The notes under the pieces: model-generated
What the model was told of the DNA's origin: nothing
Databases searched by the model: none
Seen by the model: only the letters and a program-made list of their open reading frames with translations
Source of the DNA: a virus
Taxonomy: Duplodnaviria; Heunggongvirae; Uroviricota; Caudoviricetes
DNA: 4,276 nt
Direction: 5' to 3' (one strand)
Virus record (IMG/VR): IMGVR_UViG_2690316086_000016
Location: 1 to 4,276 of that record
Made by a program: the position numbers and the translations under genes
Part shown: positions 3,977 to 4,276 of the stretch, one piece after another
How positions within the stretch are numbered: the stretch's first letter is position 1
Layout of the letters: every line of letters begins with the position of its first letter

Positions 3977-3987
3977 CCGAATAAAAA

Positions 3988-4019
3988 TATACCAATTGGT
4001 ATACCAAGTTTATACCAAG
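3988..4019 (+). repeat. Three direct copies of TATACCAA(G) at about 12-bp spacing; candidate integrase arm-type binding sites or operator repeats
   Basis: TATACCAA at 3988-3995, GTATACCAAG at 3999-4008 and TATACCAAG at 4011-4019, all in the same orientation, next to the tRNA-fragment att core. Confidence 0.4.
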
Positions 4020-4021
4020 AG

Positions 4022-4055
4022 CCAAAAAACAAAGGGGCTACCATTTGGTAACCCC
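4022..4055 (-). terminator. Terminator-like hairpin immediately 3' of the tRNA-Ser fragment (minus strand)
   Basis: Stem GGGGCTACC (4034-4042) / GGTAACCCC (4047-4055) with loop ATTT; 8 of 9 positions pair, with one C/A mismatch as written that becomes a G-U wobble in the minus-strand transcript. On the minus strand it is followed by TTTGTTTTTTGG (complement of 4022-4033). Confidence 0.5.
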
Positions 4056-4064
4056 TTGATTATT

Positions 4065-4124
4065 TGGCGGAAGCGCAGAGATTCGAACTCTGGAACCCTT
4101 TCGGGTCGCCGGTTTTCAAGACCG
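4065..4124 (-). other. 3'-terminal 60 nt of tRNA-Ser(UGA) (serT-like) without the 5' half; phage attachment-site core
   Basis: Reverse complement of 4065-4124 is CGGTCTTGAAAACCGGCGACCCGAAAGGGTTCCAGAGTTCGAATCTCTGCGCTTCCGCCA: anticodon stem-loop with UGA anticodon, long variable arm (class II, Ser), T-arm GGTTCGAATC and acceptor 3' strand ending CCA. It matches E. coli serT as I recall it. The complementary acceptor 5' strand (GGAAGCG) and D-arm are absent from 4125-4276, so this is a fragment and not a gene. Confidence 0.75.
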
Positions 4125-4226
4125 AAGAAAAACAAATAAAAATCAGTGCAATACGTGAAATTGCTGAAAAGTTAATCAAATTTAACACCAAGAAAAATCA
4201 AGGTATTAGGAAGTTGCTCATAGCTA

Positions 4227-4236
4227 GTATACCAAG
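4227..4236 (+). repeat. Fourth copy of GTATACCAAG on the other side of the att core
   Basis: Exact GTATACCAAG at 4227-4236, same orientation as the three copies at 3988-4019, about 100 bp beyond the truncated edge of the tRNA fragment. Confidence 0.35.
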
Positions 4237-4276
4237 TCTTTTTGCCAGAAATTTTTCTGGATTGTCTACTTGCTAA

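Follow-up and report, generated by a model that had tools for sequence, protein, structure and literature searches.

Genes and features of the window

The window, i.e. the whole stretch of 4,276 nucleotides that was analysed, was laid out from a six-frame list of open reading frames together with the RefSeq annotation of the genomes matching it. Phage cargo occupies its left part, namely a side tail fibre gene followed by its C-terminal partner, the effector gene tccP2 and a remnant of espV, after which a tRNA-derived segment and its flanks lead to the last nucleotides of a tyrosine integrase gene (Table 1). The N-terminal protein of the tail fibre holds a long collagen-like Gly-X-Y stretch, with a 45-bp tandem repeat at 1051-1144, and just 5′ of its gene, at about 63-95, there is a terminator-like hairpin with a T-run that gives a weak Trp_leader match in Rfam. 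The tccP2 repeat unit measures 141 bp (47 aa), and its copies are 98% identical. The window holds one unit more than UTAK-6 and four units more than 12009 and strain 129 (250 aa), and its number of units recurs in none of the matching records. As this difference in unit count is found between loci that are otherwise identical, the repeat number must be variable.

The reading frame next to the tRNA-derived segment, listed as orf132 in the preliminary description, is annotated in RefSeq as "secretion protein EspV, incomplete, missing N-terminus", and its product matches positions 273-402 of the 402 positions of phrog_26984. It is the C-terminal third of the type III secretion effector gene espV, a pseudogene, and represents the final cargo gene of the left, tccP2-carrying prophage. 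The espV fragment beside the corresponding site is still shorter in phage Evi and in O26 11368.

The tRNA-derived segment corresponds to positions 29-88 of the 88 positions of an annotated tRNA-Ser gene located between yccA and hyaA. This gene beside hyaA was typed with ARAGORN as tRNA-Ser(UGA), that is serT, while the neighbouring serU carries the anticodon CGA and differs from serT in sequence. The preliminary description had proposed a 60-nt minus-strand 3′ fragment of tRNA-Ser(UGA) with its CCA end directed towards phage genes, and this is what was found: the CCA end (TGG on the plus strand, 4065-4067) faces left, towards espV′, tccP2 and stf, and the truncated end faces right. The segment spans most of the anticodon stem-loop, the variable arm, the T arm and the 3′ strand of the acceptor with CCA, and on the truncated side it includes just 4 bp of the anticodon stem's 5′ strand. 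The likeness to the tRNA is lost from 4125 on, with GAAGAAAAAC standing where serT has GGTGCCTTCA. Neither ARAGORN nor Rfam at a permissive E-value detected a complete tRNA in the window, and the full cloverleaf with a 5′ half that characterizes a functional tRNA is not available, as 28 nucleotides of the 5′ part are absent. The only Rfam matches in the window were MicX and Trp_leader, both weak and below threshold, and both of them terminator hairpins.

Table 1. Positions and strands of the features of the window
Feature	Position	Strand	Remark
Side tail fibre gene (stf)	99-1418	+	followed by its C-terminal partner
tccP2	1816-3132	-	438 aa, 7.4 copies of a 141-bp unit
espV remnant	3578-3976	-	132 codons; RefSeq and PHROG
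P arm (cargo side)	about 3971-4064		same sequence abuts complete serT (attR)
TATACCAA repeat cluster, P arm	3988-3995 (+), 3996-4003 (-), 4000-4007 (+), 4011-4018 (+)		
Intrinsic terminator-like hairpin	4022-4057	-	stem-loop 4057-4032, T-run TGTTTTTTGG; terminator scan and RNA fold
IHF consensus match AATCAAGGGGTTA	4049-4061	-	P arm, beside the core
Core (identity block)	4065-4124	-	60/60 identical to the 3′ 60 nt of serT
Anticodon loop	4114-4120	-	plus strand TTTCAAG; anticodon TCA at 4116-4118
P′ arm (int side)	4125-4265		same sequence between the yccA-side tRNA fragment and int (attL)
Degenerate arm repeat AACACCAAG	4184-4192	+	repeat families D2/D3
IHF consensus match AATCAAGGTATTA	4196-4208	+	P′ arm
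Fifth TATACCAA repeat (GTATACCAAGT)	4228-4235	+	P′ arm, candidate arm-type site
Tyrosine integrase, last 11 nt	4266-4276	-	stop codon TAG at 4266-4268; remainder outside the window

Anatomy of the attachment site

The flanks of the core were assigned by aligning the window with both ends of the single degraded serT prophage of E2863 and with the array ends of strains 129 and UTAK-6. The left flank aligns from about 3971 with two junctions, the one on the serT side of E2863 and the B/C junction of 12009, and attR-type matches, covering positions 1-154 of the query 3971-4170, occur in hundreds of genomes. The right flank matches the yccA-side junctions of E2863, 129 and UTAK-6. In such four-way alignments the left flank is thus the arm found at attR, the right flank is the arm found at attL, and the core equals attB, of which an unoccupied copy, typed as tRNA-Ser(UGA), is present in 12009. 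The 60-nt block is identical across attP, attB, attL and attR, and it is impossible for a match of 60 out of 60 nucleotides of a tRNA that recurs at the attL, attR and attB of other genomes to have arisen by chance. On the CCA side, identity with the host extends five bases further, to 4060, when the host sequence of E2863 is taken, and stops at 4065 against the O103 hosts, where a C versus T difference at 4064 ends it.

Since both phage arms surround the core, the structure has the order P-O-P′, i.e. that of an attP, and judged by its sequence the segment 3971-4265 is a complete lambda-type attP with P arm, core and P′ arm. A simple prophage end, either attL or attR, does not describe it, as host chromosome lies on neither side: cargo is found to the left, the P′ arm and int to the right. 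Several features that characterize an attP of the lambda type are present instead, namely a core equal to attB, flanks that are distributed between attR and attL, arm repeats on both sides, an adjoining integrase with an arm-binding N-terminal domain accompanied by an excisionase, and the same position in a free phage. The latter is Escherichia phage Evi (LR597642), in which the same attP lies at 31467-31765 (93% identity over 298 nt), between a stf/espV fragment and int-xis-exo. Furthermore, a scan for the exact pattern located the site on two IMG/VR contigs.

In regard to the elements within the arms, TATACCAA has five exact copies in the 4.3-kb window, every one of them inside the attP, where 0.10 would be expected, and none of 200 shuffled sequences reached five. 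Four of the copies, one of them inverted, belong to the P arm and one to the P′ arm. All copies are invariant in phage Evi despite about 20 substitutions in its P′ arm, the degenerate copy is likewise kept within that diverged arm, and the cluster of four is unchanged in the B/C junction of 12009 as well. These repeats are candidate arm-type binding sites of the integrase. The IHF consensus WATCAANNNNTTR has just two matches in the whole window, one per arm, against an expected 0.15, and these are to be read as consensus matches only. The match in the P′ arm forms an imperfect inverted repeat (I1) with 4049-4064.

The hairpin of the P arm, which also accounts for the weak MicX match in Rfam, lies on the tRNA strand directly 3′ of the CCA end and has 11 bp. 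By its position and fold, it is a phage replacement for the serT terminator. The phage thus carries a terminator hairpin in addition to the tRNA 3′ part, and supplies serT with both at integration. The host sequence downstream of serT (L010, about 7690-7736) contains a hairpin similar to phage 4020-4064, in a diverged form.

Within the core, an inverted repeat of the anticodon stem (4109-4113 and 4121-4124) flanks the loop. We infer that strands could be exchanged within the 7-bp anticodon loop, a placement suggested by the single observation that the identity block ends 4 bp past the loop. As the block begins at tRNA position 29, 4 bp before the loop, its extent is compatible with the anticodon-loop class of sites; integration in the anticodon loop of tRNA genes, as described by Williams in 2002, reportedly gives such a pattern of the identity block.

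The preliminary description had predicted that an integrase would lie across the junction and had recognized neither a tRNA 5′ half nor host sequence to the right of the fragment. Both points were borne out, as the fragment is followed by the phage P′ arm and the 11 final nucleotides of int, beyond which an excisionase-like gene and exo are located in the matching genomes. The integrase belongs to the right-hand prophage and corresponds to RefSeq WP_001299351.1 (339 aa; L001, 20690-21709). It matches Phage_integrase of Pfam, and its residues 1-319 align with residues 1-340 of lambda Int (1z1b, E=5.6e-20). Its N-terminal domain was recognized neither by Pfam nor by NCBIfam and was seen through solved structures, with residues 1-59 aligning to the isolated N-domain 1kjk (E=0.048). 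Similarly, the excisionase was not named by Pfam or NCBIfam and was named through PHROGs: the gene beside int matches DUF4224 and the PHROG excisionase family phrog_1266, and it is followed by the exonuclease gene exo.

Among the catalytic residues, the Arg of the first box (CAARLGD versus TGQRVGD) and the GHK box are aligned with those of lambda Int, and the Tyr located 9 residues past the His of the GHK box is present in the integrase sequence, past the end of the printed alignment. In the HxxR box, FHDIK, a Lys is aligned with the second catalytic Arg of lambda (HDIK for HELR in the 1z1b alignment). The same Lys is found in the Int of phage Evi, which is about 97% identical to the integrase adjoining the window, and in the variant of 2014C-3061. 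Like the relocated arrays described below, this is a minor point, which may deserve follow-up.

Tandem prophages at serT and arrays at other loci

The site studied here belongs to a group of prophages that is well known. The serT gene is a published prophage site at which two or three prophages are found in tandem (PMC10132054; PMC8767318), tccP2 is carried on Sp4/CP-933M (PMC2884950), and espK together with tccP2 has been described on Sp4 (PMC2884950, PMC2323221). The anatomy of the site is accordingly a textbook arrangement, and its biology is already known.

The sequence 3577-4276 is present in full and at 100% identity in only 6 of 5,426 complete E. coli genomes, namely 129, UTAK-6, EL361, ML775, O103:H2 12009 and 2014C-3061, and the context flanking the window was read from these six. 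In four of them (129, UTAK-6, EL361, ML775) the junction lies between two serT prophages. The array has the order yccA-attL-[tccP2 phage]-attP-[espK phage]-complete serT-hyaA in 129 and in UTAK-6, so that in these two strains the outer attL and attR expected around a tandem junction are both found at the cognate attB; EL361 and ML775 have the same yccA-int (attL) end at the expected distance. UTAK-6 is also the closest match of the whole window (99.5%). Small polymorphisms assign the P arm of the junction, which is joined to a P′ arm, to the tccP2 phage, and show that the espK phage retains its own P arm variant at attR. The designation of tRNA-Ser(UGA) as the integration target in the preliminary description is supported, since the same cargo end abuts a complete serT, and the same int end adjoins yccA, in hundreds of genomes.

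For counting the junctions, 3971-4170 was used as query, for which a coverage of 80% can be reached only by a P-O-P′ junction. Junctions of this type were found in 80 of the 5,426 complete genomes, including O26:H11 11368. An earlier count of 747 "attP-like" genomes was dropped, as attL alone covered 84-85% of the query used for it because the terminator of the host serT resembles that of the phage. The O157:H7 genomes have the same attL and attR arms at 95-99% identity.

The junction brings the tail fibre/tccP2/espV′ end of one prophage together with the int-xis-exo end of the next. Taking these observations together, we consider it highly probable that 3971-4265 is the attP of lambdoid prophages integrating into serT, similar to Sp4/CP-933M and with type III effectors, for example tccP2 and espK, among their cargo, and that it lies here between two such prophages. 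The aligned junctions show what integration produces: a complete serT is rebuilt at the cargo end (attR) from the 60 nt and the terminator of the phage, and the host's own 60-nt copy is displaced to the yccA side, where it adjoins int (attL). When another phage with this att type enters, a middle junction results that combines the P arm from phage 1 with the P′ arm from phage 2, as seen in the window. In mechanistic terms, the lambda-Int-like N-terminal domain of the integrase would bind the TATACCAA repeats in the arms and its core-binding domain would occupy the inverted repeat of the anticodon stem, IHF would bend the arms at the two consensus sites, and the strands would be exchanged in the 7-nt anticodon loop. 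With the help of the DUF4224 excisionase, either prophage could exit singly, by attL x POP′ or POP′ x attR, or both could exit jointly as one circle via attL x attR.

In the remaining two genomes the same junction is found at other addresses. In 12009 (NC_013353.1 2,282,668-2,436,099; L001, L003, L004, L005, L010), three prophages stand in tandem from yodB to serU, with two serT-type attP junctions inside this serU array, and the serT site is empty. The single serU prophage of UTAK-6 is collinear (99.5%) with the outer parts of this array, its inner 92 kb are a circular permutation of the serT array of strain 129, and a 22.8-kb direct repeat of late genes (99.7%) is located at both ends of the insert. 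In 2014C-3061 (NZ_CP027548.1 930,357-1,026,800; L017, L020, L021), the same tccP2-attP-int junction is found inside an array at mlrA(yehV)/btsS, which is bounded by mlrA and a yehV-type int on one side and by nleA-btsS on the other. The left prophage of this array has the yehV-type integrase, and the right one has a serT-type integrase (S34T variant) with nleA/espS cargo beside btsS. With the junction away from serT in two of the six genomes, tandem integration at serT cannot be its sole origin. The preliminary description had proposed either an intact attP or a junction between tandem prophages at the serT locus. These two of its alternatives turned out to describe the same thing, a P-O-P′ structure situated between two prophages, and the address at serT holds for the four genomes named above, but not for 12009, where the junction lies in the serU array, nor for 2014C-3061, where it lies in the mlrA/yehV array.

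The second junction of 12009 joins the P arm of the espK phage, across the core, to the P′ arm of the tccP2 phage. This is the predicted product of attL x attR, and together with the empty serT it supports excision of both prophages as one circle. The most economical reading that we can infer would be that the double prophage was excised and its circle then captured in the serU prophage. In more specific terms, it seems reasonably probable that Int/Xis excised both serT prophages of 12009 as a single circle of about 100 kb, that this circle was captured by homologous recombination in the shared 22.8-kb late region of the serU prophage, and that the attP junction marks such an en-bloc relocation in some lineages; in 2014C-3061, a serT-type phage is similarly placed inside the yehV/mlrA array. 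If true, effector phages could switch their chromosomal address regardless of the target of their integrase. Going by the assembly alone, the serT-derived circle of 12009 may also be episomal and not integrated. The alternative that the serT and serU prophages of 12009 had undergone a simple inversion was rejected, as it would put serT-hyaA beside espK, and a second attP and an empty serT are seen instead; a misassembly across the 22.8-kb repeat was rejected as well, because it could produce neither the empty attB nor the P-O-P′ joint. Literature searches found no description of the serU arrangement of 12009, and a 2026 paper on the O103:H2 population makes no mention of serT, serU or tccP2.

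Related to this, several other origins of the window have to be weighed. It is possible, though we hold this only tentatively, that the attP is the same but reached its place in another way, with a serT-type circle of one or two phages being captured by homologous recombination in a lambdoid prophage residing elsewhere. The yodB-serU array of 12009, with its empty serT, flanks collinear with the UTAK-6-type serU prophage, permuted strain-129 insert and 22.8-kb repeats, speaks for such a capture, as does the location of the 2014C-3061 junction in an array reaching from mlrA/yehV-int to nleA-btsS; the plain serT tandem seen in four of the six genomes, UTAK-6 as the closest match among them, speaks against it. 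That the window comes instead from an unintegrated phage or an excised circle, so that it would represent the true attP of a single phage with no junction of two prophages, appears improbable to us. Its structure would be the same, free Evi has the identical layout stf-espV′-attP-int, the exact site is carried by two viral contigs, and an excised tccP2 phage would restore just such a sequence. However, all six records matching 3577-4276 at 100% are chromosomes with different prophages on either side, and the nearest record for 3977-4276 in the phage collection is merely 93% identical. The P′ arm beside the tccP2 phage's own int (attL) in UTAK-6 has a T at the position aligned to 4149, where both the junction and the window have C, which fits the P′ arm of the espK phage, although this is a weak pointer, as C stands in both places in strain 129.

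That the site is an att remnant devoid of function, either rearranged, the further alternative raised in the preliminary description, or decayed, is in our judgement very improbable. EHEC prophages are often defective, the neighbouring espV is a pseudogene, and int is frameshifted at this locus in several other strains, e.g. E2863 and O26 11368. Nevertheless, the core and its two arms are intact here, as are all repeats, the terminator and the adjoining 339-aa int reading frame, and the arms are identical or nearly identical to working prophage ends from hundreds of genomes as well as to the site in a free phage. The findings that the preliminary description regarded as incompatible with its interpretation, i.e. 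a complete tRNA at this place or a plain host flank, were both absent.

Significance and comparison with known systems

The junction fixes the boundary between two prophages that annotation pipelines tend to merge, and it names serT as the common target of both. The anatomy of the site, with its core, arm repeats and terminator, could be used for PCR of excision, circles and polylysogeny in O103, O26 and related STEC/EPEC. Tandem lambdoid prophages carrying effectors are a known engine of EHEC genome plasticity, and the same junction at serU or yehV in two genomes provides worked examples of relocation through recombination between prophages.

Among the known systems, the attP of lambda resembles the site in the order of tail fibre/b-region cargo, attP, int, xis and exo, with int transcribed towards the site, in the repeated arm motifs that flank a core common with attB, and in the matches to the IHF consensus in both arms. 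Lambda Int itself is homologous to the integrase adjoining the window over the full length, including the arm-binding N-terminal domain. On the other hand, the core here lies in the tRNA gene serT, with an identity of 60-65 bp, compared to 15 bp at gal-bio in lambda, and the arm motif TATACCAA, found four times in P and once or twice in P′, differs from that of lambda in sequence and arrangement. The excisionase-like protein is of the DUF4224 type and not lambda Xis, and the HxxR box reads HDIK.

The block reaching from the 5′ strand of the anticodon stem to just past the 3′ end of the tRNA, together with the restoration of the gene at integration, would place the site near the anticodon-loop sublocation that Williams is said to have described in 2002, a likeness of pattern only.

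The Sp4/CP-933M-type serT prophages of EHEC/EPEC have the tccP2 and espK cargo and the tandem site at serT in common with the prophages discussed here. They differ in that O103:H2 has tccP2 and espK on two tandem prophages and not on one, and in that the tccP2 of the window has 7.4 proline-rich repeats.

Finally, tandem polylysogens such as lambda dilysogens and those of Mycobacterium abscessus (PMC9934374) show the same middle P-O-P′, the array being bounded by attL and attR. The routes proposed for them, Int-mediated integration into attL/attR or homologous recombination with a resident prophage, correspond to those considered here. Unlike in those systems, the prophages in this case are heteroimmune and differ in their late genes while having one int/att type in common, and in two genomes their junction is found at non-cognate loci.
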